Source: Thermoproteota archaeon (lineage in GTDB: Archaea > Thermoproteota > Thermoprotei_A > EX4484-217-1 > JAPDJV01). From it: a stretch of DNA of 64,000 bases. Both the position numbers and the translations under genes were made by a program. Shown in pieces: positions 19,343-62,484 of this stretch (the stretch's first letter is position 1; every line of letters starts with the position of its first letter). The notes below the pieces were generated by a model, which saw only the letters and a list, made by a program, of their open reading frames with translations, did no database searches and was not told the origin of the DNA. The stretch is from contig JAPDJV010000003.1 in NCBI GenBank assembly GCA_029258925.1, positions 22,895 through 86,894 on the forward strand. The letters run 5' to 3'.

Positions 19343-19870
19343 ATGCGCAATAATATTGTCAAAGAAACAGAGATGCTTCTACTCGCATCTCTAGGTGAAG
19401 CAAAACTCATTTACAGTGCAATAGATTATGGAATCAAAACCATTGAAGACCTTAGAACACTCATGCTACTGGAATGTGTTGGAGAAGACATTTCTAAGAC
19501 AATAGGATTATACATGCTCACTTGTAGAACAATGAATCATAGCGAACCAGTAATGATTCCACGGAACCACTTAGAGCCTCATGCAATAGCGGAGTACATG
19601 AATTTTAAGGGGAAAATGCTGGAAATCGGCACTAAGAATGTTGTTGGAGAAAAAGAGTTTAGGGAATTAGTGGAGTACTGTACTTTAATACAATATTCCC
19701 TACAACTACACCTAATAATTTTAAGGAGATCTGTTTGTCCAATACTCGAGGAAATAGAAGATCCCTTCACAAGCAACTTCATAAAAATACTATACGTTAA
19801 TAAAATACGTGAAGCCCAAGAAGTCCTACATAAAGTCACTAAATTACAGAGTAAGCCAGAAATCAAGTAA
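19343..19870 (+). CDS. Hypothetical protein
   Basis: 175-aa ORF in an AT-richer patch; no recognised motif. Confidence 0.55.
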   Translation: MRNNIVKETEMLLLASLGEAKLIYSAIDYGIKTIEDLRTLMLLECVGEDISKTIGLYMLTCRTMNHSEPVMIPRNHLEPHAIAEYMNFKGKMLEIGTKNVVGEKEFRELVEYCTLIQYSLQLHLIILRRSVCPILEEIEDPFTSNFIKILYVNKIREAQEVLHKVTKLQSKPEIK

Positions 19871-20181
19871 TACATGAATCACTTGTACAAACTTACATAC
19901 AACTAAATTTCCATCATATAGAGCAGACTTGTGACAATTGTAAGTCAGATAACATGTACGTAGTTTTTGTAGGGGAGCTACGGAAACGAAGAGACTTCTA
20001 AAGCTAAGAATTATTGTCTCTTACGTCAACTTGCTACAATCCCCATTATTGAAGCCAAATATTCGAGCTCCCACCTATAACCAGCAACAGTTCTCCAGCA
20101 ACATGATGAACACTATCCAAGAATCTTCTCTTAACTATGTGGCGAGCTCTGAAACCAAGATTTTCCCTGAAATCCCACTAA

Positions 20182-20240
20182 GTGTCATAGCCATCCTTTC
20201 TCATCATCTCGAGCTCAGACGTGCGTAACTTAATCATCCA
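20182..20240 (-). ncRNA. Box C/D 2'-O-methylation guide sRNA, double guide, predicted 23S rRNA target
   Basis: Minus strand: C ATGATTA (20237-20231), 12-nt guide AGTTACGCACGT, D' CTGA, C' ATGATGA, 12-nt guide GAAAGGATGGCT, D ATGA (20188-20185); 53-nt core; both guides complementary to recalled archaeal 23S H43/H44 consensus. Confidence 0.8.
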
Positions 20241-20260
20241 ATAACTATTTTTCCCGGAAA

Positions 20261-20268
20261 ATATTAAA
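20261..20268 (-). promoter_or_regulatory. Putative TATA box of the C/D sRNA
   Basis: TTTAATAT on minus strand, about 21-28 nt upstream of the sRNA 5' end. Confidence 0.45.
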
Positions 20269-20347
20269 TGCTTCTCTTAAATCATAAATACTTTAATTGA
20301 GAGAAAACTAGTTTATTCCTCCAGTTAAAGAATTTTGTAAATCGATA

Positions 20348-22009
20348 TTAGAGACCGTAATGTATACGTGCTTCTTCAAGACTTATTCTCCCTTCTTCAA
20401 CGTCTCTTAGAACAAGTTCCCTACTCCTATTCTCCGGACGACCATAACCTCCCCCACCTGGAGTGCGTATGTAGACCACGTCTCCAGGCTCTAACTCCAC
20501 TACGTCGTTCCCCTTCAACGATATTCTCCTACCATCTTTCTTCAAAACATAGTGTTCTCCTGGCTTCCCAGGACCTCCACCCATTAATCCCCAAGGCTTC
20601 GTCTTAATTCTGCTTGCTACTAGACTGAAGATAGCTCTCCCCCTCCTAATAGTGAAAACCCTTCTAATACCCAAGCCGCCTCTATATTCTCCATGGCCGC
20701 ACGAGTTTTCCCTCAGAGAATATTCTAGAAACAGTATGGGATATTCTCTTTCAGCTATTTCTATTGGAGTATTCAGAGTGTTCGTCATGTTAACGTGTAC
20801 TCCGTCAACCCCTTCTCTCCCCGGCCTCCCACCCATGCCTCCACCAATAGTCTCGTAGAAAGCCCATTTCTTCCCATCAAATACCCCTCCTATCATCACG
20901 TTGTTCATGCTTCCGTGGGGGGCTGCTGGAACTCTTCCCGGCAGGCACTTAGAGAATGCAAGATGTATTACGTCCACTATTCTCTGAGAGGTTTCAAGGT
21001 TTCCTGCTGCAACAGGTGCTGGCTTAATGGGGTTCACTATTGAGCCTAGAGATGCTTCTACTCTAAGCCTCCTCAAAATCCCATGGTTCATCGGTAGATC
21101 CGGGTCTAAGATGGATTTCACTGCATAACATGAGGCAGAATACGTTACCCCGTAGACTGCATTTATTGGTGCATCAACCTGCTTCGACGAGCCTTTGAAA
21201 TCTATTATTATCATGTTGCTTGAAATATTGAGAGTACACTTTAATTTAAGCAGTTCCTCCCCGTATTCGAGGAAGTCAACCGCGCTATACGTTCCACCAC
21301 GCACTTTCCTTAATTTTTCTAGGAGATACCTCTCTCCGTAATCTAACACCATACTCCATGCTTCAATAACCGTGGAGTAACCATACTTATTGAAGATCTC
21401 CTCCATCCTCCTCTCTCCAACATTAAGCGAGGCAAGCTGTGCTTTTATGTCCCCCTTAGTATATTCCGGAACCCTGACGTTTCCAAGTAGTTCCTCTAGT
21501 ACCCGCCTGTTCAACTCTCCTTTCTCAACTATTTTAACGGGCTCTATGACAACGCCTTCCTCGTACAAGCTCTTAGCCATGGGATTTATGCTTCCAGGAG
21601 TCTTCCCACCCACATCAACGTGATGGGCTTTATTCACTATGAATCCAGCGAGCTCTCCTTTAAAGTAGAATGGTTTTATCAGGGTTATGTCGTTTAAGTG
21701 AGTTCCAGCAATATATGGATCATTCACTATTACTACGTCTCCCTCACTCAACGAAACACCTTTCTCATCAAGATACTTAAGAGTATTCTCTACACAGACC
21801 GTCATACTGCCTAAGTGTACTGGAATATGTTCTGCCTGAGCAACTAGTTCCCCTCTACTAGAAAATATTGCACAACTCATGTCCAGTCTATCCTTTATGT
21901 TGGGCGAGTAGGCTGTTCTCCTTAAAACAATCCCCATTTCCTCAGCTATGAAAATACAAGCGTTTCTAATAACTTCAACAGTCACTTTATCAACGGACAT
22001 TGCTTCCAC
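20348..22009 (-). CDS. hyuB: Hydantoinase B / 5-oxoprolinase subunit
   Basis: RTAYSPNIKDRLD.SCA, HIPVH, NDPY.AGTHLND, HH.DVGG, ETIGGG.G, HVNMTNT.NTP.E, TPGGGGYG. Confidence 0.92.
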   Translation of the reverse strand: MEAMSVDKVTVEVIRNACIFIAEEMGIVLRRTAYSPNIKDRLDMSCAIFSSRGELVAQAEHIPVHLGSMTVCVENTLKYLDEKGVSLSEGDVVIVNDPYIAGTHLNDITLIKPFYFKGELAGFIVNKAHHVDVGGKTPGSINPMAKSLYEEGVVIEPVKIVEKGELNRRVLEELLGNVRVPEYTKGDIKAQLASLNVGERRMEEIFNKYGYSTVIEAWSMVLDYGERYLLEKLRKVRGGTYSAVDFLEYGEELLKLKCTLNISSNMIIIDFKGSSKQVDAPINAVYGVTYSASCYAVKSILDPDLPMNHGILRRLRVEASLGSIVNPIKPAPVAAGNLETSQRIVDVIHLAFSKCLPGRVPAAPHGSMNNVMIGGVFDGKKWAFYETIGGGMGGRPGREGVDGVHVNMTNTLNTPIEIAEREYPILFLEYSLRENSCGHGEYRGGLGIRRVFTIRRGRAIFSLVASRIKTKPWGLMGGGPGKPGEHYVLKKDGRRISLKGNDVVELEPGDVVYIRTPGGGGYGRPENRSRELVLRDVEEGRISLEEARIHYGL

Positions 22010-24067
22010 CTATCTGCAGGTGATCCGAATACTCTCGTACTCGTCCACCACGGCCGTAAAGCCCTCGGGGACATATATTGTTGAATCGTAAGATTCTATT
22101 ATTGAGGGGCCCTTCAATAATGCTCCCGGCTTCAACATGCTTCTAGAGTAAACTGATGAGTCAATCCAGTTGTAGCCGTCAAATATTCTCCTAAAACCTG
22201 TTGCAACAGGTCTATGCTCCTCAACCCTTCTCCTAGGCATAACAGGCTTATCTGTAATCCCGATTACCGTGACCTTCACGGTGTCGACTATAACCTCTTC
22301 CTCCTCAGAGCGGAAGCCATACGTCTCCAAGTGTTTTCTGTGGAAGACGTCGAGAAGGGCATTGTAGTTTTCTACGTATGGAATTGTTAAACTGCTCCTC
22401 TCACCTCTATACCTCAAGTCAAGCATCCCCACAACCTTAATATTTGATTCAGACGCGCCCTCCTCCAAAACCGCTTTAGTACCTCGCATTGAAAGTTTCT
22501 CCAATAGTTCCGCGACCTCGAGCAAGCTCTCCTCGCGTAGTGGCTTCAGGTAGGGTGCAGACAGGTCAACTCTATAGTCTGCAACTAGGAGGCCGAATGC
22601 AGAGAATGCGCCCGGATTTTTGGGAACAATTATTTCTCTAACACCCAGCTCAACTGCTATCTCAGCTGCATGTAGCGGGCCTGCACCTCCGAAAGCGTAG
22701 AGCGTTGCCTTCCTAGGGTCGATCCCCCTTTCAATACTCACAATTCTAAGAGCTTTCGACATTAAAGTATTGGCTATCTTTATTATTCCGTATGCTGCTT
22801 CCTCTATGCTTAGAGAGAGCTTAGATGCGATTTTGCCAATAGCTTTCCTCGCTAAACTTTCATCCGCAACTATTTCTCCTCCCGCGAGAATCCTTGAAAG
22901 CCTTCCTAGAACAAGGTTTGCATCCGTTATAGTCGGTTCAACACCTCCCCTGCCATAACAAGCCGGTCCAGGACTTGACCCGGCGCTCATGGGGCCAACT
23001 CTCAGAGTGCCGCCTTCATCGATCCAAGCTATGCTCCCCCCGCCAGCACTTACTTCAGCCAGGTCTATGAAAGGATACCTTACAGGATACCCTGAACCCT
23101 TCACAATCCTACCACTATGAACCTTCCCACCGACCTCGTAGTCTAATGTTATGAGCGGGTCTCCCTCCACTATCATAGATGCTTTAGCAGTTGTTCCACC
23201 CATGTCGAAGCCCATTGATAGCTCGTGGCCGTACATATTAGAGTAGTATGCAACAGCTATCGCCCCGGCAGCTGGCCCCGACTCTATGAATGCTACGGGG
23301 GTTTCAACAGCTCTACTAATATTAGTTAGACCACCGCTACTCTGCATAACAAGTATTTTAGAGTTGAAACCCTTCTCTCCGAGCTCCCCTAAAAGCTTCT
23401 CCAAGTAATTTGAGAGAAGAGGCTTCAAGTACGCGTTAACCACTGTTGTACTTGTTCTCTCATACTCTCCTGGATGCGGGTCTACTTCGGAAGATAAGAT
23501 TATTTCCGCTGATACACCTTCCTCGACGAGTATTCTCCTAGCCTCTCTCTCGTGCACCGGGTTTACGTAGCTGTGTAAGAAGACTATTGCAACTACATCC
23601 ACTAACCCCTTTATTTTCCTAGCAATCCTCCTTAAACCCTCGACGTCCAAAGGCTTAATTATTTCTCCTTCAGTTGAAATCCTCTCCTCAACTTCAAACC
23701 TCATGTTCCTAGGTACAAGGGGCTTGGGCTTCTCGAAGAACAAGTTGTAGAGGCTTGGCCTGTTCTGTCTTCCAATCTCAAAAACGTCTCTAAAACCCTT
23801 CGTAGTTATTAGGGCTATTCTAGGCTTAACTAGGCCTACCTGGCCTAGGAGAAGGTTTGAGCCGAGGGTTGTTGCATGAACTATGTGCTCGACACTTCTA
23901 AGCTCTATTCCCCCTAATTCAATGCATGCAATAATACTCCTCCACGGCTCGTCAACATCTGTTAGAATCTTAACTATTCTCAAATCCCCGTTCTCGCAGT
24001 TGAGTACCGTTACGTCGGTGAATGTCCCACCCACATCTACTCCTATACGGCACCTAGCCAAGCCCAT
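22010..24067 (-). CDS. hyuA: Hydantoinase A / 5-oxoprolinase ATP-binding subunit
   Basis: GVDVGGTFTD, HATT, EYER.STTVVNAY, ESGPAAG, DMGGTT, FGGAGPLHA. Confidence 0.93.
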   Translation of the reverse strand: MGLARCRIGVDVGGTFTDVTVLNCENGDLRIVKILTDVDEPWRSIIACIELGGIELRSVEHIVHATTLGSNLLLGQVGLVKPRIALITTKGFRDVFEIGRQNRPSLYNLFFEKPKPLVPRNMRFEVEERISTEGEIIKPLDVEGLRRIARKIKGLVDVVAIVFLHSYVNPVHEREARRILVEEGVSAEIILSSEVDPHPGEYERTSTTVVNAYLKPLLSNYLEKLLGELGEKGFNSKILVMQSSGGLTNISRAVETPVAFIESGPAAGAIAVAYYSNMYGHELSMGFDMGGTTAKASMIVEGDPLITLDYEVGGKVHSGRIVKGSGYPVRYPFIDLAEVSAGGGSIAWIDEGGTLRVGPMSAGSSPGPACYGRGGVEPTITDANLVLGRLSRILAGGEIVADESLARKAIGKIASKLSLSIEEAAYGIIKIANTLMSKALRIVSIERGIDPRKATLYAFGGAGPLHAAEIAVELGVREIIVPKNPGAFSAFGLLVADYRVDLSAPYLKPLREESLLEVAELLEKLSMRGTKAVLEEGASESNIKVVGMLDLRYRGERSSLTIPYVENYNALLDVFHRKHLETYGFRSEEEEVIVDTVKVTVIGITDKPVMPRRRVEEHRPVATGFRRIFDGYNWIDSSVYSRSMLKPGALLKGPSIIESYDSTIYVPEGFTAVVDEYESIRITCR

Positions 24068-24409: not shown

Positions 24410-25420
24410 TTGAGGCGGGCAGTGATCGACTTGAGTAGAATATGTTCTAGCACCGTGGGAAGCTTCCCCTTAACTTATAGTGAGAGAAACGTGCTCAGAG
24501 TCCTAGAGGATTTGGAGGAAGTTGGAATAGACTACCCGGCTACACCCCAGCTCAGAGGATTCATAGAGATATTCCTAGATCCGCTAGTCGATGAAGGTTT
24601 CCTCGCTAGAGGCTCGAGTGGAGAATACTACGTGGTTAAGCAGGAATTCGAATCCCTTGAACCCCCAATAGACTGGTTCAGAGAATATGTTATTGCACCC
24701 CGTTTTAAGGAGGGATTTGAGGGTTTAAGGCTCAGCATTACAGGTCCTCTAACTCTAGCAAGCCGCATAGCACCGGGGAGCGGCTCAGAACACGGTATTT
24801 TGAACAGCATGCTCTCAAATAAGAAGTTTACCTTAGAGTTCATGGGATCCTACGTTAGCAGAGTTGTCGAAAAAATATCTTCACTTGGATACAGTGTCAC
24901 AGTCGTAGATGAGCCTGTGCTGAGCATTATTGTTGGACGTAGAAGGATATTGTTCAACTACAGTGTCGAAGAACTAACGATGCTCATCGACATGGTTCTA
25001 GGTAAGTCTACTTCGAGAATTAGAGGAATCCACGTTTGCGGTAGAATACCGCCACTACTGACAAAGATACTGCTCTCAACATCAGAAGCATCGCTACTAG
25101 ACCATGAATACTGCGATACTCCAGAAAACTACGAGGCCTACAGTCTAGAAGAGTTGGAATCCTACAACAAATATGTTTCAGTCGGAGTAGTGTCTTCCAG
25201 AAGGCCCGAGGTGGAGAGTGTTAAGGAAGTTTACGACAATATTGTTAGAGCATGGGAGAAATATGGCAGCAGACTGTTCTTCGTCAAACCGGACTGCGGC
25301 TTCATGGCACTTAGAGGATTCTACGGAGACGAGGAGAGGGAATACATGGTTTCCATTAGAAAACTAAAGGTTATTGTTGAAGCATTAAAATTGTTCGAGC
25401 AAGACTTCTTGGAGAGGTAG
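24410..25420 (+). CDS. metE: Core (C-terminal-domain-only) cobalamin-independent methionine synthase family protein
   Basis: 336 aa; VGSFP, ITGPLTL, VDEP; Zn ligands IHVCG (H,C), DHEY (E), PDCGF (C); lacks the N-terminal half of full-length MetE. Confidence 0.8.
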   Translation: MRRAVIDLSRICSSTVGSFPLTYSERNVLRVLEDLEEVGIDYPATPQLRGFIEIFLDPLVDEGFLARGSSGEYYVVKQEFESLEPPIDWFREYVIAPRFKEGFEGLRLSITGPLTLASRIAPGSGSEHGILNSMLSNKKFTLEFMGSYVSRVVEKISSLGYSVTVVDEPVLSIIVGRRRILFNYSVEELTMLIDMVLGKSTSRIRGIHVCGRIPPLLTKILLSTSEASLLDHEYCDTPENYEAYSLEELESYNKYVSVGVVSSRRPEVESVKEVYDNIVRAWEKYGSRLFFVKPDCGFMALRGFYGDEEREYMVSIRKLKVIVEALKLFEQDFLER

Positions 25421-25424
25421 ATAG

Positions 25425-27176
25425 TTGCCTAAACTGAAGATACTGCCTATGAATATCGAGGTTGATGTGGAGGAGAACACTGTTCTAGCAGATGCAATCA
25501 AAGCTGTCATCCCAGAATTCCCTACTCCCTGCGGAGGCCTAGGTTTCTGTGGTAGGTGCAGGGTTAGGGTCATCGTAGACGGATTATCCGAACCCTCCGG
25601 GAACGAGAGAGTGCTCTTAGGTGGAAGCAGGTTTAGACTATCTTGTCAAGCCAAGGTGATCGGGGATACAGTCGTAGAGATTCTGAAACCGCATGAAGAA
25701 CATAAGATTACTGTTTCAGGAATAGAGCCCACAATAGAGTTCCGCGACCCTATAATTAGAGCTATTGAAGTGAGGTTGAATGGGGTATTCGAGGCACCAC
25801 TGTCTAAAGTATTGCTTGAAGAAGCTGGTGGAACGATTCATGTAGACGGTGCAGTATTGAAGCTGGCTAATGTCAAGAGTAAAAATGTTAGAGTGTTGGT
25901 GGATTGGAGTGGAAGGATCATTGGGTTAAGGGAGAATCGTTCGAGAAATCTCGGCCTAGCCGTGGATTTGGGTACAACTAAGATAGCAGGATACCTTGTG
26001 GACTTGGAGACGGGAGAGAGCCTGGGCGAAAGCTACGTTATAAACCCCCAGATAGACTTTGGCGACGACGTTGTGACGAGAATTATGAGAGCATTGGAGC
26101 CGAAGGGCTTAATAGAGCTTAGAGAGAGGGCAATAGCTGGTATAGAGAGTGTTGCGTTGAAGACGTGTAGTCGTGAAGGCTTGAATCCAAAAGACATCGT
26201 TGCCTCGGTTATTGTAGGAAACAACGTCATGACCAACATTCTCCTAGGTTTACCGGTGGAAACGCTTGCAAAACACCCTTATCAACCTATTCTAGCAAGC
26301 CCCGTCCTATTGAGAGGAAAGACCGTTGGGTTCAATCTCCTTGAAAACACTTTAATCTACATGCCTCCCGGAGTAGCTGGATTTGTGGGTTCAGATGCTG
26401 TAGCCGACATTGTTTTGGTGTGGAAGCTCGGGTTAAATGGGAAAATACTAATACTTGACGTCGGCACGAACACTGAGATAGTTCTAATAGAGGATTGGAG
26501 GAGAATTCTCGTAACTTCTGCCCCAGCTGGTCCAGCAGTAGAGGGAGCACACATTTCTATAGGAGCCAGGGTTGTTGATAGAGCGTTCAGGAAAGCCAGG
26601 GTCTCCAGTAGGGGTGAGATAATCTTAGAGCCGAGCATAGAGAACCCCGTTGGACTCACTGGATCCGCGTTGATAAGCCTCCTAGCATGTCTCCTCGAGA
26701 AAAACTATATAGATGAGGGGGGGAGGATTGTCGAAGGCTTCGATGTTGACTCTACGGGCCTGAAAAGAATTACTGTATACCGGTCGCGTGATGGAGAAAC
26801 TCTCAGTTTAACACAGCTTGACGTAAGAGAACTCCAGAAAGCTAAGGCTGCTATAGCAGCGGGATGGAGGACAATATTGGAAAAGGCAGGAACCAATGCA
26901 TTAGACTACGTGGTGGTTGCAGGGAGCTTCGGATCCTCGATAAACGTTGAACACGCCATTAGAATAGGTCTCCTACCAGACGTTGGGAGAGACAAGGTAA
27001 TTGTGGTGGGGAACGCTGCTGGAATTGGAGCTAAAGCAATAATGCTGAATGGCGAGTGCAGAAGGGTGGGGGAGGAGGTTTCTAGGAAAGCATTCTACCT
27101 GAATCTAGCTGAATTGGGAGAGTGGGAGAAAACGTGGGTGCAAAGCTTATTTTTAAGACCTATTAAAATCAGCTAG
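25425..27176 (+). CDS. ATP-dependent reductive activator of corrinoid proteins, RACo type (N-terminal 2Fe-2S + ASKHA/DUF4445)
   Basis: CGGLGFCGRC...LSCQ ferredoxin; DLGTTK, DVGTNTEI, APAGPAVEG, TQLDVRELQKAKAAI, AGSFG, GNAA. Confidence 0.92.
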   Translation: MPKLKILPMNIEVDVEENTVLADAIKAVIPEFPTPCGGLGFCGRCRVRVIVDGLSEPSGNERVLLGGSRFRLSCQAKVIGDTVVEILKPHEEHKITVSGIEPTIEFRDPIIRAIEVRLNGVFEAPLSKVLLEEAGGTIHVDGAVLKLANVKSKNVRVLVDWSGRIIGLRENRSRNLGLAVDLGTTKIAGYLVDLETGESLGESYVINPQIDFGDDVVTRIMRALEPKGLIELRERAIAGIESVALKTCSREGLNPKDIVASVIVGNNVMTNILLGLPVETLAKHPYQPILASPVLLRGKTVGFNLLENTLIYMPPGVAGFVGSDAVADIVLVWKLGLNGKILILDVGTNTEIVLIEDWRRILVTSAPAGPAVEGAHISIGARVVDRAFRKARVSSRGEIILEPSIENPVGLTGSALISLLACLLEKNYIDEGGRIVEGFDVDSTGLKRITVYRSRDGETLSLTQLDVRELQKAKAAIAAGWRTILEKAGTNALDYVVVAGSFGSSINVEHAIRIGLLPDVGRDKVIVVGNAAGIGAKAIMLNGECRRVGEEVSRKAFYLNLAELGEWEKTWVQSLFLRPIKIS

Positions 27177-27189
27177 CGGGATGAGGTAG

Positions 27190-27855
27190 GTGAGTCGGGA
27201 AGAAATTGAGAAATTGCTTAGAGAGTTGAGAAATAGAGTGTTAGAGGGGGATGATGAGGGTGCAGAGAATATTGTCACCAGGCTCGCCGAGCTTAGAGTG
27301 GACCCCAAGAGGATAATTGAAGAAGCGCTCACACCTGCAATGAATAAAGCCGGAGAACTCTATGAAGTGGGAGAATACTTCATACCGGAACTAATGATGG
27401 CCGCGGAAGCATTTAAAGCAGCATTCAATGTCGTAAAACCTCTTCTAAAAACGGATGAAACTGGGGGGAGAGCAACAATTATCATAGGAACCGTTGCCGG
27501 AGACATTCATGAACTCGGGAAAAACCTCGTTGCAACAATGCTTAGAATAGCAGGGTACAATGTAGTAGATCTCGGAGTGAATGTTCCAGCAGAAAAATTC
27601 GTTGAAGAAGCTCTAAAACACGGGGCTAAGATCATAGGTTTAAGCGCTCTCATGTCGACAACCATGGTTGAGCAAAGGAAAGTCATTGAAATTCTAGAGA
27701 AGAAGGGATTAAGGGATAAGTTCAAGGTGATAGTTGGAGGTGCACCTGTAACAGAGGATTGGGCCAGGCAGATAGGTGCAGATGCTTACGGGAGAGACGC
27801 GTTTGAAGCAGTTAGAAAAGTTAGAATGTTGCTGGGTGAAGAGGGGAGTGCCTAG
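27190..27855 (+). CDS. Methyltransferase cognate corrinoid protein (MttC/MtgC-like)
   Basis: Cap domain (GEYFIPELMMAAEA) + GDIHELGKNLV (DxHxxG), GLSALM, VGGAPV, GADAY. Confidence 0.95.
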   Translation: MSREEIEKLLRELRNRVLEGDDEGAENIVTRLAELRVDPKRIIEEALTPAMNKAGELYEVGEYFIPELMMAAEAFKAAFNVVKPLLKTDETGGRATIIIGTVAGDIHELGKNLVATMLRIAGYNVVDLGVNVPAEKFVEEALKHGAKIIGLSALMSTTMVEQRKVIEILEKKGLRDKFKVIVGGAPVTEDWARQIGADAYGRDAFEAVRKVRMLLGEEGSA

Positions 27856-29293
27856 GCCTAAACTGAGAATTATGTCTGAAGAAGAATTCCTGAAAATACA
27901 CAATGCATCGATAAAACTCTTAGAAGACGTGGGCGTCTTCATAGACAATAAGGAGGGGCTCAGATCCCTCGAGGAAGCAGGTGCCTTAGTTGATGGGAGG
28001 AGAGCTAGGATTCCTAGGAGGATTGTTGAGGACGCGTTGGAGAGAGCTCCAAAGACTATAACAATATACGATAGAGACGGAGCAAAATATGCGGAGCTTA
28101 GGCCAGGAGGGGAGACACTGTTTGCTCCCGGAAGCGCTGCAGTGAAAATATTAGACTATAACTCCACTACTCCAAGACCACCAGCACTCAGAGACCTCGT
28201 AAACATAGCTTTAATAGTTGAAAACCTGAGTTCAATAAAATTGCAGAGTACAGCAGTAATACCGGTAGATGTGCCTATCGAGCACAGGGATTCAATAAGG
28301 CTTCTACCAATCCTCGCGTTTTCCAGTAAACCGATTGTCACGGGAGCATTCTCCGATGAAGGATTGATTAACATGCTTAAAGCATTAAGCATTTTGAGAG
28401 AAGACTACGCGGATAAGCCTATGGCAATATTCGACGTCTGCCCCTCCCCGCCATTGAAGTGGAGCTATACCACGTGCCAGAACTTGCTGGATTTGGCTAG
28501 GACAGCTATGCCTGCAGAAATAATTTCAATGCCCCAAATAGGTGCGACGGGTCCTGCAACAATAGCTGGAAGCCTTATCCAACACCATGCAGAGGTTCTA
28601 AGTGGAATAGTCATGGCTGAAACCGTTAACCCCGGTACGCCAGTCATATACGGGGGGAGTCCAAGCCTATTCGATATGAGGTATGGGACAAGTAGGATAG
28701 CGGCACCTGAAGCAATACTTCTGACTGCCGCATACATTGGAATATGTGGTTTCCTAGGATTACCGTGCCACGCCTACCTGTGCCTCTCGGACTCCAAGAC
28801 CTTAGATTACCAGGCTGGGATGGAGACATTAATGGGCGCTCTAATAGCTCTCTTAACAGGAGTCAACGTTGCATCCGGTCCAGGTATGCTTGAATACGAG
28901 AGTGTTCTGAGTATTGAGAAAATATTGTTGGACTCGGAAGTTATTGAAGTCGCTTCTAGAATACTCCGTGGGTTCGAGATTGCCGATGAAACTATTGCAT
29001 TGGATGTTATGAAGAGAGTAGTTACTGGTAAAATGCACTATTTAACTGAAAAACACACTTTAAAATGGTATAGGAGAGAACACTATATTCCAATGCTAGT
29101 GGATACTACAACCGTGGAAGCGAGGGAGCCCGATAGGATTATTGGAAGAGCAAGAGAGAAGGTTTTAGAAGTGTTGAGGTCAGCTAGGTCTAAGGTGCTT
29201 GAGGAGAAGCTGTTCTCAGCTCTCATAAAATACTTCTCTAAATTAACTGGGATAAGAGAGGAGAAGCTGGTCGCAATGTTAGGAGTGAAATGA
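27848..29293 (+). CDS. mttB: Trimethylamine methyltransferase (MttB) superfamily, non-pyrrolysine member
   Basis: Start moved to GTG 27848 overlapping the corrinoid gene stop (MPRPKLRIMSEEE); SPPLKW, GATGPAT.AG, PGTPVIYGG, SDSK..DYQAG.E, GPGMLE; no in-frame amber. Confidence 0.9.
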   Translation: MPRPKLRIMSEEEFLKIHNASIKLLEDVGVFIDNKEGLRSLEEAGALVDGRRARIPRRIVEDALERAPKTITIYDRDGAKYAELRPGGETLFAPGSAAVKILDYNSTTPRPPALRDLVNIALIVENLSSIKLQSTAVIPVDVPIEHRDSIRLLPILAFSSKPIVTGAFSDEGLINMLKALSILREDYADKPMAIFDVCPSPPLKWSYTTCQNLLDLARTAMPAEIISMPQIGATGPATIAGSLIQHHAEVLSGIVMAETVNPGTPVIYGGSPSLFDMRYGTSRIAAPEAILLTAAYIGICGFLGLPCHAYLCLSDSKTLDYQAGMETLMGALIALLTGVNVASGPGMLEYESVLSIEKILLDSEVIEVASRILRGFEIADETIALDVMKRVVTGKMHYLTEKHTLKWYRREHYIPMLVDTTTVEAREPDRIIGRAREKVLEVLRSARSKVLEEKLFSALIKYFSKLTGIREEKLVAMLGVK

Positions 29294-32799: not shown

Positions 32800-32856
32800 A
32801 GGTCAGAGAGGTCTCCAATCATCACGTTTCAGATAGGAGGACCCTCACATCATCGA
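32800..32856 (-). ncRNA. Box C/D guide sRNA (target unassigned)
   Basis: Minus strand: C ATGATGT (32853-32847), guide GAGGGTCCTCCTAT, D' CTGA, AAC, C' GTGATGA, 12-nt guide TTGGAGACCTCT, D CTGA (32806-32803); 51-nt core, intergenic. Confidence 0.8.
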
Positions 32857-52866: not shown

Positions 52867-54114
52867 TCAACGCTTTCCTCGAATGCCTACATCCTCGGAT
52901 CTCCCTCTCACGATGTCAAGTAGCTTCTTATATGGTAACACTGGCCTCCCCCGCCTAACAGTATAATATATGATTGGTGCCTTAACTTTTCTAAGATACG
53001 GTTTGAGCTTTTCGTCTGCTAAAACTATTATGTTCTTCCCCAGCTTGGCTACTTCGCTAAGCTTGTACGCCTTTTTCTCAGCATACTCTTTCCTCCAGTA
53101 TCCGGCGACTTCGATGTAGAATTCTCTGCCACGGTGAACTATTTTGAAGTCAGGTATGTAGATTAGGTCTCCCAGAGCTATGGGCTCCGGCTCTCTGATA
53201 GCTTCTAACCCTAACGCTTTCAGCGTCCAGTAGATTCTCTCCTCGACTTCGCTGTCGAACGCTGGCTGAACTCCCAGTTTTCTCGGAGGACTTATAGAGG
53301 GCATTCGCCGGCTTGAGAGAACTCTTATTGTCAGCGTTCTTCTAGTGAAGTGTGTTCTAGAAGTTACTCTCCAGTTCCCTGCTTCAACTAGTATTGGAAG
53401 CATTCTTGTGAGCAGTAGTGTCAGTCTTAGACCATACCTTGTCGGCTTCCCGAATAGGCTTCTAGGTCCCTCAACTAATGTTTTCATCCAGTTTCCTCCA
53501 GCTCTAGCATCGTATACTAGGCCTAAGTGCTTACATGTTCTACCCAGAACCTTGGCTATTTTGGCCAGGATCCCTGGCTGCCCCTCAACTTCTATTTTGA
53601 GGGATGAAGAGTTGATGCATATCGTGTCAACTGTCTCGAAATTATATGCTTCAACAACATCTCTAACACTAGGCTTGAATATTCTCTTGAGAGGTTTCTC
53701 GTATTCCATGTCCTGCCATAACACTTCCTCCAAGTCTTCGACTCCCAGCAATTCCTCTAAGTACTTCAATGCCTTTCTTCTCTCACCGCTTGGAACGAAT
53801 CCACCGTAGAGCTCGTTCACGAGTTTGAAAACTCTTAGTCTCAGAACTTTAGGGTTAACTGTTTGCCTTAAGCTCTCCATTTCAGGCCTATAATATCTCT
53901 CCATAACCTTCCTCAATCCCTTATAGAGTTTGTCACATCCTACAATCAATTTCAGCTCGTCCCAATCTATTTCGCCAAACTTTTTCCCAACATTTTCCTC
54001 GTAGAAGCCTATGACTGCTTCAACTAGTAGCCTATGCTTTGATTCATCTAAGTATTCTGGGAATGCTATGCCTCTCCTAAACTTTAGCCTCAGATTGCTC
54101 CTACCATAGGTCAA
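52867..54114 (-). CDS. bax1: Bax1 (DUF790) endonuclease, partner of XPB
   Basis: AYN, GP.SLF..TRYG, FDSEVEE, PDF..IEVAGYW..Y..KK; 2 bp downstream of xpb. Confidence 0.88.
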   Translation of the reverse strand: MTYGRSNLRLKFRRGIAFPEYLDESKHRLLVEAVIGFYEENVGKKFGEIDWDELKLIVGCDKLYKGLRKVMERYYRPEMESLRQTVNPKVLRLRVFKLVNELYGGFVPSGERRKALKYLEELLGVEDLEEVLWQDMEYEKPLKRIFKPSVRDVVEAYNFETVDTICINSSSLKIEVEGQPGILAKIAKVLGRTCKHLGLVYDARAGGNWMKTLVEGPRSLFGKPTRYGLRLTLLLTRMLPILVEAGNWRVTSRTHFTRRTLTIRVLSSRRMPSISPPRKLGVQPAFDSEVEERIYWTLKALGLEAIREPEPIALGDLIYIPDFKIVHRGREFYIEVAGYWRKEYAEKKAYKLSEVAKLGKNIIVLADEKLKPYLRKVKAPIIYYTVRRGRPVLPYKKLLDIVRGRSEDVGIRGKR

Positions 54115-54116
54115 CT

Positions 54117-55754
54117 CTAGTCCTCCTCGAATAGCTCCGGCTTCCTCCTACGCTTGGCTAGGGAGGGCTCTATAGTTCTCTTAGTGATTATCTCGTAGAG
54201 CAATGCTTTCTTCTCCTTCGGCCTAAGTATTCTGCCAAGTCTCTGAACGTATTCTCTATAGCTCCCGGTTCCGCTGACAACTATTGCCATCGAGGCATCT
54301 GGCACGTCTACTCCTTCATCTAACACCATTGCTGTAGCAATAATCCTTACATCGCCTTTCCTGAACAATTCAAGATACTTCTTCCTCTCGTCTCTGGGAG
54401 TATCGTGAAGTATCATGGGTACTAGTAGTTTTCTCGAGATCTCTCTGACTATGTCGGTGTACCTTGAGAAAACAATCACTTTCTCCCCCGGATGTTTTTC
54501 CAGCAGTTCTTCCACGATCATTATCTTCTTGTCGGCGCTCAAAGCAATCTTCCTAGCACTATTTTTTGCTCTAAGAGCCTCTCTTGCCTCGGGATCTCTG
54601 GAAGCCATTGCCAGAACTCTCCTAAACCTCTCCCTAGGATCCTTTACGCCCCTAAGCTTCCTATTACAGTATTCCAGATACTTCTCGATCAGCCTCCTAT
54701 ACTCCTCGTATTCTTCTCGAGAAAGCTCTACGTATATCTTCTTTTCAACGTGTTTAGCTAGATAGCCCTCCTCCTGTAGTTCCACGTGTGATAGCGTGTA
54801 TACTATTCCACCTATTATCTTCTCGTAGTTTTTGTGTAGACCGTCGCTTCTGAAAGGTGTCGCGGTTAAGCCAAGCCTGTACGGTGCTGTTGATTCCTCT
54901 AGAGCTCTCATGTAGCTGGGGCTCACGGCGTGGTGGCATTCGTCGGCTATTATTAGGCCGAAGTATGTTGAGTACTTCCATAGATTTATGCTGGCTGAAT
55001 CGTACGTCATGATGGTTATCTCCCTAATCTCCCTCCTCCCACCACCGTAAACACCGATCGTATTGGGCGGGGGGTTAAGTGTTGAAACTATTTTGTCCCT
55101 CCACTGGTTTAAGAGTTCTATTGTTGGGACGAGTATCAGTGTTTTCACTTTCAAGTATTCTATACACTTCAATCCCACGAGGGTTTTCCCGGCTCCAGTC
55201 GGTAAAACAATTATCCCTCTGAATCCTGCTTCAACCCACTTCTCGAACGCCTCTCTCTGGTATTTCCTCAGCTCCAATTTGAGAATTGGATTATAGGTTA
55301 GAGCATAGTTTACCGTGAACTCTAGTTTAATCCTCGAACCAGCCTTCCCCGCGCACCCAATTATTTCATGTAGCATCATGGGTTTTGCTCTAAGAGTCCC
55401 ACTCCTACTATCCCAGACAGCAATCCCCCTCTCCTCTAGGACTCTCCTTAACCTCCTGTTCGCAGAATACACTACTAGATCGGATCCTTCCGAGACCAGT
55501 AGTGTATCAACATTCTCTCCTTCAAGCTCCCCGATTTTCTCCTTGACGTTTTCAGGCAAGTATACTCCTAGCTTGCCCAGGATTTCAATAGTCCTATCTA
55601 ACCCTATTGATGCCGCCTTAGCTGGGTTAAGTCTGTAAACGTTTAAGCCTGCATCCTTATCGTATCCAATATAGTCCGCTACGAGCCCTAGTTTCTTGTA
55701 GTCTAGTGCACTCAACCATTTAACTCTGAAAGTTAGCATTGCCACCACATTCAA
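54117..55754 (-). CDS. xpb: XPB/Rad25-family SF2 DNA helicase
   Basis: LRKYQ, LPTGAGKT, DECHH, LGLTAT, DEGVDVPD, QRLGRILR. Confidence 0.92.
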   Translation of the reverse strand: MNVVAMLTFRVKWLSALDYKKLGLVADYIGYDKDAGLNVYRLNPAKAASIGLDRTIEILGKLGVYLPENVKEKIGELEGENVDTLLVSEGSDLVVYSANRRLRRVLEERGIAVWDSRSGTLRAKPMMLHEIIGCAGKAGSRIKLEFTVNYALTYNPILKLELRKYQREAFEKWVEAGFRGIIVLPTGAGKTLVGLKCIEYLKVKTLILVPTIELLNQWRDKIVSTLNPPPNTIGVYGGGRREIREITIMTYDSASINLWKYSTYFGLIIADECHHAVSPSYMRALEESTAPYRLGLTATPFRSDGLHKNYEKIIGGIVYTLSHVELQEEGYLAKHVEKKIYVELSREEYEEYRRLIEKYLEYCNRKLRGVKDPRERFRRVLAMASRDPEAREALRAKNSARKIALSADKKIMIVEELLEKHPGEKVIVFSRYTDIVREISRKLLVPMILHDTPRDERKKYLELFRKGDVRIIATAMVLDEGVDVPDASMAIVVSGTGSYREYVQRLGRILRPKEKKALLYEIITKRTIEPSLAKRRRKPELFEED

Positions 55755-61413: not shown

Positions 61414-62484
61414 GTGGGGGAGGAAGAGGAGAGGATCACTGTTGCACCCATGCTGCTCTTCAGACTTAGAGAGATGCTCATAGACTACTTTGAGGCGTTA
61501 GCCAGTGGAATAGTTTCCACAGATTTCTATAGGAGAGAGATTGCTGGGATTAGTGTTGGCAGGATAAATGCTTCCAGTTGGAGCCCCAGTAGGGTTGTCG
61601 TTGTGGACGGCGGCAGCAACGTCGTTTCAATGAATGCTGGCTTCCTAGGCGTGTGCAGTGCTGTTGCAGTTGTTTTCGAGGGTAACAGGGTTTCAGGTAG
61701 GATTATCGGTGAACCCGAACTAGTTCCCGACTCCCCTAGAGACCTAGTAGTATTCGAAGTTCTAGACCAAGTGATGTGCGTGTTGGACAAGCTTAGGGAA
61801 GCAAAGGTTTTCGAGACAGCTCTAAGAGCGCTAGAAGAATTCGACCCGGAGCTGCTGGTAATCGACGGCCCATTGATGCCATATGGTGCACTAGCTAAAA
61901 TGCCTACTGGAACACTATACGAGAAGCATGCTTTCACCAGGTATAAGAGGAGTGTGTTGAGGTTGCTTGGGGAAGCCGAGGCTAGAGGTGTCAGCGTTAT
62001 CGGATTTGTTAAGAGGCCTAGATCAGCCTTCCTGCACCACGAGGGGGTCATCGACGAGAAAATATATGACCACATGTTTTTGACGGGGGTTCTAAGCGTG
62101 GGAGAATACTGTCCCTGCCCCCCTAGGAGGATACCTGTCTCGGAGGAGCTGATACATGACAGGGAGGTGCTGGAGCTTGCTGGAAGAACAGGTTTATCGT
62201 ATACTTTCGCTAGGTTCACCGAGGCAACTGCACCATACAGAATAGACTTCGGCCCCTTGGAGGCAGGATACGAGGATATACTATCATACTTGTACTCCAA
62301 TAGGACTAGGGAGGGTATACCGTACCATGTCATGAAGGCCGACGAGGAGACGAAGATTTCGAGGAAGCTCATGAGAGAACTATACGAGGACGCGCTTCAC
62401 GCCTACATTAAGAGAGTACTGGGGGGTGCTGGGGGAAGGGTTTCGAGTATCGTTCCAGCACTATTAAGGTATGGGGAGTGGTAG
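61414..62484 (+). CDS. nurA: NurA-family 5'-3' nuclease
   Basis: VVVVDGGS, LVIDGPL, IGFVKR, GIPY..KAD..KI. Confidence 0.88.
   Translation: MGEEEERITVAPMLLFRLREMLIDYFEALASGIVSTDFYRREIAGISVGRINASSWSPSRVVVVDGGSNVVSMNAGFLGVCSAVAVVFEGNRVSGRIIGEPELVPDSPRDLVVFEVLDQVMCVLDKLREAKVFETALRALEEFDPELLVIDGPLMPYGALAKMPTGTLYEKHAFTRYKRSVLRLLGEAEARGVSVIGFVKRPRSAFLHHEGVIDEKIYDHMFLTGVLSVGEYCPCPPRRIPVSEELIHDREVLELAGRTGLSYTFARFTEATAPYRIDFGPLEAGYEDILSYLYSNRTREGIPYHVMKADEETKISRKLMRELYEDALHAYIKRVLGGAGGRVSSIVPALLRYGEW

Follow-up and report, generated by a model that had tools for sequence, protein, structure and literature searches.

A candidate archaeal box C/D guide RNA with a paired base change in its terminal boxes and two predicted target sites in the GTPase-associated centre of 23S rRNA

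The archaeal box C/D guide RNAs (sRNAs) that provide the closest comparison for the locus described here were collected in a survey of 489 sequences from seven species (Dennis et al. 2015, PMC4644070). In that survey, 262 of the 489 sRNAs were classed as double guides, whose two sites lie less than 100 nt apart under a criterion of 9 bp, and 163 had no rRNA target. For some of the double guides, one of the two interactions is described as forming without methylation (PMC4644070). The H43/H44 segment of 23S rRNA is among the regions already targeted: M. kandleri sR15, a double guide, pairs with CCAGCCAUCCUC through its D guide and with CUAACAGCUCAC through its D' guide, and M. kandleri sR34 pairs with GGAGUGCGUAACC in the same segment through its D guide (PMC4644070). 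In the 23S alignment that accompanies the survey, which covers seven archaea and E. coli (PMC4644070 Additional file 3), sRNA labels of I. hospitalis, P. calidifontis and T. tenax also stand over this block.

In the nomenclature of the kink-turn (k-turn), G3, A4, U5 and G6 of the C box are positions 1b, 2b, 3b and 4b, and A4, G3, U2 and C1 of the D box are positions 1n to 4n (pair identities from PMC5689011). The 3b:3n pair of archaeal box C/D k-turns is U:U, and the 4b:4n pair is “strongly conserved as G:C” (PMC5689011). Pyrobaculum sRNAs, whose families have been curated, have variable K-turn pairs, and some of their non-canonical K-motifs escape the covariance model (PMC6009581). Several P. 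calidifontis sRNAs in the survey depart from the usual terminal boxes: sR118 has ATGATTA...ATGA and is represented by 82 RNA-seq reads, sR32 has ATGATTG...ATGA and 59 reads, sR120 has GTGATTT...ATGA, and sR116 has GTGGCTG...AGGA (PMC4644070 Additional file 1).

The locus lies in a stretch of archaeal DNA of 64,000 nt, hereafter the window. On the minus strand, positions 20240..20182 read 5'-UGG AUGAUUA AGUUACGCACGU CUGA GCUCGAG AUGAUGA GAAAGGAUGGCU AUGA CAC-3'. Specifically, the C box AUGAUUA (20237..20231) is followed by the 12-nt D' guide AGUUACGCACGU (20230..20219), the D' box CUGA (20218..20215), the 7-nt D'-to-C' spacer GCUCGAG, which would be the loop of the K-loop (20214..20208), the C' box AUGAUGA (20207..20201), the 12-nt D guide GAAAGGAUGGCU (20200..20189) and the D box AUGA (20188..20185), all on the minus strand. 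A 5' leader UUGG (20238..20241, minus strand) and a 3' tail CAC (20182..20184, minus strand) flank the boxes and would pair in a short terminal stem, as read from the sequence and from the structure line of the Rfam model RF00095. The four-box layout with two 12-nt guides, which had been proposed in an earlier note on this DNA, is thus borne out by the minus-strand sequence, and a four-box scan (see below) returned the same arrangement. The earlier note was also correct that both terminal boxes are off consensus: each deviates by one base, the C box by G to U at position 6 of RUGAUGA and the D box by C to A at position 1 of CUGA, and the internal boxes are canonical. The stretch from C box to D box measures 53 nt, or 59–60 nt with the stem included, and agrees with the norm of ~50–60 nt for the total length; both guide spacers are exactly 12 nt, where ~12 nt is usual. 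The canonical D' and C' boxes are separated by 7 nt, where 3–9 nt is the norm for a K-loop. A terminal kink-turn calls for tandem sheared G.A pairs, U.U at 3b:3n, a Watson–Crick pair at 4b:4n, a 3-nt bulge and a C stem at its flank; in the candidate, the GA dinucleotides and the U/U are in place, the 4b:4n pair is U:A, and the C stem is only 2 bp. The leader nucleotide G20238 would be the k-turn loop position L1, G20239 would pair with C20184, and U20240 with A20183, which would make -1b:-1n a G:C pair, followed by U:A.

The scan was conducted on both strands of the 64-kb window with a pattern of four boxes and guides of 10–13 nt, allowing at most two mismatches overall. The candidate was its sole match on either strand. 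Dinucleotide-preserving shuffles (n = 200) gave a mean of 0.02 matches per window, with any match at all in 3 of the 200. No matches to Rfam were obtained in the whole window at gathering thresholds, and ARAGORN found no tRNA in it. In E-value mode, RF00095 (snoPyro_CD, a generic Pyrococcus C/D family) aligned end to end with 20241..20182 on the minus strand, covering positions 1–58 of 58 with the terminal stem and the four boxes in register. With 20.7 bits (E = 0.088 for 701 bases searched), the alignment falls short of the gathering score of 45, and the candidate stands outside the family by the Rfam criterion. RF00095 takes the D box as CU-(AU)-GA with a 2-nt insertion. We rejected this alignment of the D box in favour of AUGA, because the latter leaves the spacing at 12 nt and can pair with the altered C box. 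Computed RNA folds were no better than those of shuffled sequences (60-mer, z = -1.47; 141-nt stretch, z = 0.21), and since C/D RNAs are not expected to fold stably alone, this weak fold carries little information. Elsewhere in the window, a weaker second C/D-like motif is present at 32853..32803.

Because position 6 of the C box and position 1 of the D box are 4b and 4n of the k-turn, the two deviations in the terminal boxes are the two sides of a single Watson–Crick pair, changed from G:C to U:A. The earlier proposal that the two changes compensate each other therefore agrees with the established nomenclature (PMC5689011): U at C6 and A at D1 fall on 4b:4n, and pairing is kept. The novelty that it implied for this box pair is not sustained, since AUGAUUA/AUGA already occurs in the published and RNA-seq-supported P. 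calidifontis sR118. To place the variant in context, we used the P. calidifontis set of 88 RNA-seq-derived sRNAs, each of which is listed without the sequence outside its C and D boxes (PMC4644070 Additional file 1). The C6:D1 combination is G:C in 80 of them, U:A in 4, C:G in 1 and a mismatch in 3, and U6 is associated with A1 (Fisher p = 1e-5). The internal K-loops of sR16 and sR125 have U:A as well. As independent, expressed P. calidifontis RNAs carry U:A, they support the pairing logic, and the variant of the candidate is a known natural one. The covariation that the earlier note suggested looking for was thus found between U:A and G:C among the P. calidifontis sRNAs, and the searches for relatives of the candidate itself yielded no homologue in the species genomes or the JGI metagenomes. 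The compensation is supported by analogy with the Pyrobaculum sRNAs. Two features count against the reading as a guide RNA: the terminal stem of only 2 bp, and a U-A pair, which is weaker than a G-C pair, in a host that is presumably a hyperthermophile.

The likeness to the P. calidifontis RNAs is confined to the architecture. sR118 shares AUGAUUA...AUGA and guides of ~12 nt with the candidate and has the canonical internal boxes CUGA/GUGACGA; sR32 and sR120 share the U6:A1 pair. Their guides and targets are unrelated to those of the candidate, and P. calidifontis belongs to a different order of Thermoprotei. Since no homology is evident beyond the boxes, sR118 is regarded as a parallel solution and not as an orthologue.

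The two guides are complementary to neighbouring stretches of archaeal 23S rRNA in H43/H44, as judged on sequences from organisms other than the host. Nucleotides 1–11 of the D guide pair with AGCCAUCCUUU over 11 contiguous bp, and nucleotides 3–11 of the D' guide, counted upstream from the D' box, pair with GUGCGUAAC over 9 bp. Both sites, five bases apart, are present in the 23S rRNA of M. kandleri (GCAGCCAUCCUUUAAAGAGUGCGUAACAGC) and M. maripaludis (PMC4644070 Additional file 3), and also in three metagenomic archaeal 23S loci (L044–L046). Metagenomic 23S sequences were recovered with a profile of a spurious antisense ORF that runs across the rRNA segment, searched against a protein collection. 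The profile retrieved 38 “proteins”, and about half of them contain YALFKGW, the peptide obtained when the perfect target is translated. One contig (L044) holds a complete archaeal 23S rRNA (2914 bits to the archaeal LSU model) and the other contigs are partial; all of the recovered archaeal 23S contigs come from samples other than those of the host.

In the complete 23S rRNA of L044, the D guide can form 11 bp at one site only, the next best site giving 8 matches. The 9-bp site of the D' guide begins 16 nt downstream of the start of the D site, and a second 9-bp site for this guide falls in a variable hairpin of L044 that is not conserved in another archaeal 23S rRNA. When random 12-mers were compared with L044, an 11-bp run including nt 5 had a probability of 0.0014, and a run of 9 bp or more no further than 100 nt to either side of the D site had a probability of 0.0026. 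The two guide matches are therefore not attributable to chance, and their joint probability is ~1e-5 to 1e-6. Taken alone, the D' match is weak, because for 3.4% of random 12-mers a single 23S rRNA offers a 9-bp run at some position. The complementarity of 11 nt for the D guide and 9 nt for the D' guide that had been claimed for H43/H44 thus stands for M. kandleri, M. maripaludis and L044. In the same three 23S rRNAs, all of them from organisms other than the host, each guide has a run of at least 9 bp with a Watson–Crick pair at the N+5 position, U at nt 5 of the D guide facing A and C at nt 5 of the D' guide facing G. With its paired stretches 5 nt apart, the candidate is a typical double guide, and against these non-host 23S rRNAs it falls within both the 9-bp and the double-guide definitions of the published survey (PMC4644070).

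In the aligned E. coli sequence, the N+5 positions correspond to bases 19 and 33 of GUUGGCUUAGAAGCAGCCAUCAUUUAAAGAAAGCGUAAUAGC. Numbered from A1067 and A1095, which we take as landmarks within the 1051–1108 L11-binding fragment, these bases are E. coli A1077 and G1091. The alignment accordingly agrees with the methylation sites named in the earlier note, subject to these assumed landmarks. The E. coli numbers are conventional and not literal for every gene copy, since in one RefSeq copy of the E. coli 23S rRNA the fragment starts at nt 1047 of the annotated gene. The target segment is not uniform among archaea. One mismatch is found in the first site of S. acidocaldarius 23S rRNA, and more differences are found in I. 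hospitalis and Pyrobaculum/Thermoproteus. Metagenomic variants include CCCUU (L047), CCACCCUUU together with AAAGCGUAAC (L049), AAAGCGUAAC (L050) and AUUCUUU (L051). Because the H43/H44 segment varies in this way, the sequence of the host's own 23S rRNA matters for the prediction. A scan for the 23S target gave no match in viral contigs and only bacterial 23S rRNA in PLSDB. In a limited literature search, no relevant experimental mapping of ribose methylation came to light for the GTPase-associated centre of archaea or eukaryotes.

Comparison with the M. kandleri RNAs indicates that the candidate would use a different register. The predicted sR15 sites are C1317 and C1339 of the alignment (E. 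coli C1075 and about 1097) and the predicted sR34 site is U1332 (E. coli U1090), whereas the candidate would be directed at A1319 and G1333. The D box is CCGA or CUGA in the M. kandleri RNAs and AUGA in the candidate. Neither A1319 nor G1333 is predicted as a site in any of the seven species in the published site list (PMC4644070). Double guides into H43/H44 are not new as such, contrary to what might be concluded from the earlier note, since the double guide sR15 and also sR34 of M. kandleri already target the segment (PMC4644070). The candidate is an ordinary one in this respect, its box variant and its target region both having a published precedent.

Ribose methylation in this part of the rRNA is also carried out by a protein enzyme. 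Tsr is a stand-alone bacterial SPOUT enzyme that confers thiostrepton resistance by 2'-O-methylating A1067 in the H43 loop. The likeness lies in ribose 2'-O-methylation within the H43/H44 L11-binding domain; for the candidate, the methylation is predicted, would be RNA-guided and would involve other nucleotides. No link to antibiotic resistance is implied.

The candidate is located in a 477-nt gap between the stop codon of a hydantoinase B gene (hyuB; 20348, same strand) and a convergent 175-aa ORF (19343–19870), 107 nt downstream of hyuB. The gap is also empty of genes in two further assemblies of this organism, for which genes were called independently. Upstream of the C box, at a distance of 23 nt, there is a TATA-like element TTTAATAT (20268..20261, minus strand), preceded by the purine-rich GAGAAGCA, and its centre is ~25–27 nt upstream of a putative start near 20240. 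For intergenic positions drawn at random from this window, the motif TTTAWWWW is present in the -36..-18 interval in 1.5% of cases. The assertion that the candidate has its own TATA-like element is consistent with this distance and background frequency, and transcription would probably start from that promoter. Read-through from hyuB may be an alternative source of the transcript. The candidate is bracketed by a 12-nt near-palindromic repeat. Its upstream copy, TTTTCCCGGAAA in plus-strand letters (20249..20260), is placed between the TATA-like element and the C box, and its downstream copy, TTTTCCCTGAAA in plus-strand letters (20161..20172), is 11/12 identical and lies 9 nt past the 3' tail. 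The two copies pair with each other in the fold of the extended 141-nt stretch, for which z = 0.21 against shuffles.

The window was found in hydrothermal-vent and marine-sediment metagenomes, and all 16 runs that contain it are metagenomic DNA; no RNA run with this stretch was found. The sRNA is identical in contigs of four independent assemblies or runs (L001, L002, X2 and X4). The variable sites closest to it fall outside, at 20314 and 20402; two further runs (X3 and X6) had no coverage of the sRNA. Variation between strains was thus uninformative. The XPB-Bax1 and NurA genes confirm an archaeal host. The hydantoinase B protein is at most 60% identical to any relative (Korarchaeota, Desulfurococcales and Methanotorris) and the XPB helicase at most 65%, with Ignisphaera as its best named relatives (53–58%). 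We take the host to be an uncultured archaeon of the Thermoprotei, with Ignisphaera as the closest relative that has a name. As the nearest protein relatives are only 60–65% identical, close relatives of the host are unsampled. A pattern of C' box, D guide and NUGA (TGANNANAAAGGATGGCTNTGA) was searched in one genome from each of 185,579 species. The 39 matches were all bacterial or archaeal coding or chance occurrences, among which a K-D-G-Y/F codon string recurs, and none had an upstream C box. In the JGI metagenomes, a four-box pattern of 26 bases had a single match (L043, CUGAUGA / AUGA / GUGAGCA / GUGA) and no true homologue. We judged this match to be due to chance, as it lies in an ORF-poor, TGA-rich contig, has a G:G clash at 4b:4n and has no rRNA-like D' guide. 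Conservation of the boxes and guides in related genomes was thus not found in the species genomes or the JGI metagenomes, and without a homologue there the candidate receives no comparative support and shows no within-family covariation. Such conservation is not strictly defining, since many sRNAs are lineage-specific.

The candidate would be a gene on the minus strand for a box C/D RNA of ~55–60 nt and would function by the standard mechanism of its family. Its terminal C and D boxes would fold as a kink-turn, with tandem G.A/A.G and U.U pairs followed by U-A at 4b:4n, and its canonical D' and C' boxes would form a K-loop. L7Ae would bind to the kink-turn and the K-loop, where Nop5 and fibrillarin would assemble. 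Each 12-nt guide would then pair with nascent 23S rRNA, and fibrillarin would methylate the 2'-OH of the nucleotide that faces guide base 5, counted upstream from D or D'. For the D guide (11 bp), the nucleotide to be 2'-O-methylated would be the equivalent of E. coli A1077, which lies in H43 on its 3' side, and for the D' guide (9 bp) it would be the equivalent of E. coli G1091, in H44. We infer transcription, RNP assembly, the host 23S sequence and methylation. One rRNA molecule probably could not fill both guides of one RNP simultaneously. In that case, with the paired stretches 5 nt apart, the two methylations would be sequential events, or the D' interaction would perhaps be non-catalytic.

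We consider it likely that the candidate is a genuine archaeal box C/D guide RNA gene, and we hold methylation at both predicted sites with lower confidence. In practice it may be a single guide, of which only the 11-bp D guide methylates (the A1077 equivalent) and the D' match is either fortuitous or serves as a holder or chaperone of H44. This is unlikely on balance and has several points in its favour: the frequency of 9-bp runs among random 12-mers (3.4%), the second and equally good site in the variable hairpin of L044, the 5-nt separation, at which the geometry of a C/D RNP would hardly allow simultaneous pairing, and the published double guides with one non-methylating interaction (PMC4644070). 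Weighing against it, a 9-bp match so near the D site would seldom arise by chance (p = 0.0026), the D' N+5 pair is Watson–Crick, and the D' and C' boxes are canonical with a spacer of exactly 12 nt; moreover, the published double guide sR15 of M. kandleri has two sites that are about as close together. The candidate could also be a genuine C/D RNA with targets elsewhere, in tRNA, 16S rRNA or another site of the host 23S rRNA, if the latter differs in H43/H44. One third of the published archaeal sRNAs have no rRNA target (163/489, PMC4644070), and the H43/H44 sequence varies between archaeal lineages. Nevertheless, a perfect 11-bp match with a 9-bp match beside it, both to the version of this conserved segment that is commonest in archaea, would be very unlikely unless the host carries that version, and about half of the antisense-ORF peptides from archaeal 23S rRNA represent it (YALFKGW). 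We therefore regard other targets as very improbable.

The remaining explanations deny the locus an active RNP. If the changes in the terminal boxes were damage, the candidate would be a decaying or inactive sRNA gene, and the two non-consensus boxes, the very short terminal stem, the lack of a homologue in the genomes and metagenomes searched and the restriction of the 16 runs to metagenomic DNA are all compatible with that. By our own estimate, however, there is a chance of only ~1% that two random single-base changes, one in a box of 7 nt and one in a box of 4 nt, hit the paired position and restore pairing. The same U:A pair recurs in expressed P. calidifontis sRNAs, and the internal boxes, the 12-nt spacers and the guides are intact in a sequence that is invariant across independent metagenomes, so that decay appears improbable. 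Even less credible, to the point of being very improbable, is a chance motif in the AT-rich 3' UTR or intergenic region of hyuB, such as a piece of a terminator region, with no guide function. The absence of any match at an Rfam gathering threshold, the several short repeats and palindromes of the region and a fold no better than shuffles (z = -1.47 and 0.21) speak for such a motif. A stable fold of its own is not expected of a C/D RNA either, and the architecture is expected only 0.02 times per window, with a joint probability of the guide matches of ~1e-5 to 1e-6. The reading of the locus as a genuine guide RNA gene is thus retained.

Double guides, plasticity of the boxes and sRNA targeting of H43/H44 are all documented, and the candidate opens no new question in these respects. 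A more far-reaching proposal is that two methyl groups in the L11- and thiopeptide-binding H43/H44 region have a functional effect and, separately, that the bracketing repeat belongs to a mobile guide-RNA module; we regard this reading as a long shot. If it were true, the methyl groups would be at sites (the A1077 and G1091 equivalents) that are not predicted in the seven surveyed archaea. Their effect could be to adjust factor-dependent GTPase activation or to change how stable the stalk base is at high temperature. The 2'-O-methylation of A1067 by a protein suggests, as an analogy, that they could change the sensitivity to inhibitors of the thiopeptide type as well. The 12-nt repeat could mark a recently inserted, mobile guide-RNA module. 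Apart from this proposal, the candidate adds, for a barely sampled vent lineage of Thermoprotei, one well-formed guide RNA that is predicted to act at two sites of the GTPase-associated centre. Together with the P. calidifontis cases, it provides a natural double change from G:C to U:A that keeps the 4b:4n pair. This argues for selection on pairing at 4b:4n rather than on base identity, and it argues that sRNA finders should score position 6 of the C box and position 1 of the D box as a pair instead of requiring CUGA.

The predicted box C/D guide RNA (20240..20182, minus strand) lies between the two copies of a 12-nt near-palindromic repeat at 20161-20172 and 20249-20260 (TTTTCCCTGAAA and TTTTCCCGGAAA, 11/12 identity). 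Because the near-palindrome stands on both sides, the sRNA is also surrounded by a 16-nt inverted repeat that is 81% complementary. The upstream copy (20249-20260) separates the TATA-like element from the C box. The repeat could be a scar resembling a target-site duplication left by a mobile sRNA module; it could also be a processing stem or have arisen by chance in AT-rich DNA.

A second box C/D-like motif was found at 32803-32853 on the minus strand, in an intergenic gap, with the layout AUGAUGU, 14 nt, CUGA, AAC, GUGAUGA, 12 nt and CUGA. Its two guides are partially complementary to each other, and neither found a site of at least 9 bp in the single complete archaeal 23S rRNA compared (L044). 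The four-box pattern carrying the D guide of the sRNA had only one metagenome match, at 2439-2489 of JGI contig Ga0209145_1001590 (L043), which reads CUGAUGA, 13 nt, AUGA, 6 nt, GUGAGCA, GAAAGGAUGGCU and GUGA. This contig has a GC content of 36.7%, is nearly ORF-free and contains numerous TGA-rich strings. The match was judged to be probably due to chance. In the whole 64-kb window (1-64000), no tRNA genes were detected by ARAGORN and no Rfam family reached its own gathering score.

The hydantoinase A/B pair (hyuA/hyuB, 20348-24067) is adjoined by a corrinoid-dependent methyltransferase cluster at 24410-29293, which encodes a Meth_synt_2 protein, a RACo-type corrinoid activase, a B12-binding corrinoid protein and an MttB-family methyltransferase. 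One would not expect such a system in a Thermoprotei archaeon related to Ignisphaera. An XPB helicase gene with an adjacent DUF790 (Bax1-type) gene (52867-55754) and a NurA-domain gene (61414-62484) are DNA-repair modules typical of archaea and were used here for taxonomy only.

The classical 58-nt L11-binding fragment spans 1051-1108 in conventional numbering. In the rrl copy of E. coli O157:H7 (RefSeq; L048), whose annotated 23S rRNA is 2,898 nt long, the fragment begins at nt 1047, and thus conventional E. coli numbers are 4 off the literal coordinates of this copy. On the antisense strand of the H43/H44 segment, gene callers placed a spurious conserved ORF (...VSCYALFKGWLLL...). Among the uncultured-archaeal 23S sequences (L044, L047, L049, L050 and L051), H43/H44 is variable at exactly the bases read by the D and D' guides of the predicted sRNA at 20240..20182, with the variants CCCUU, CCACCCUUU, AUUCUUU and AAAGCGUAAC. 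Guides directed into H43/H44 must therefore co-evolve with the rRNA.
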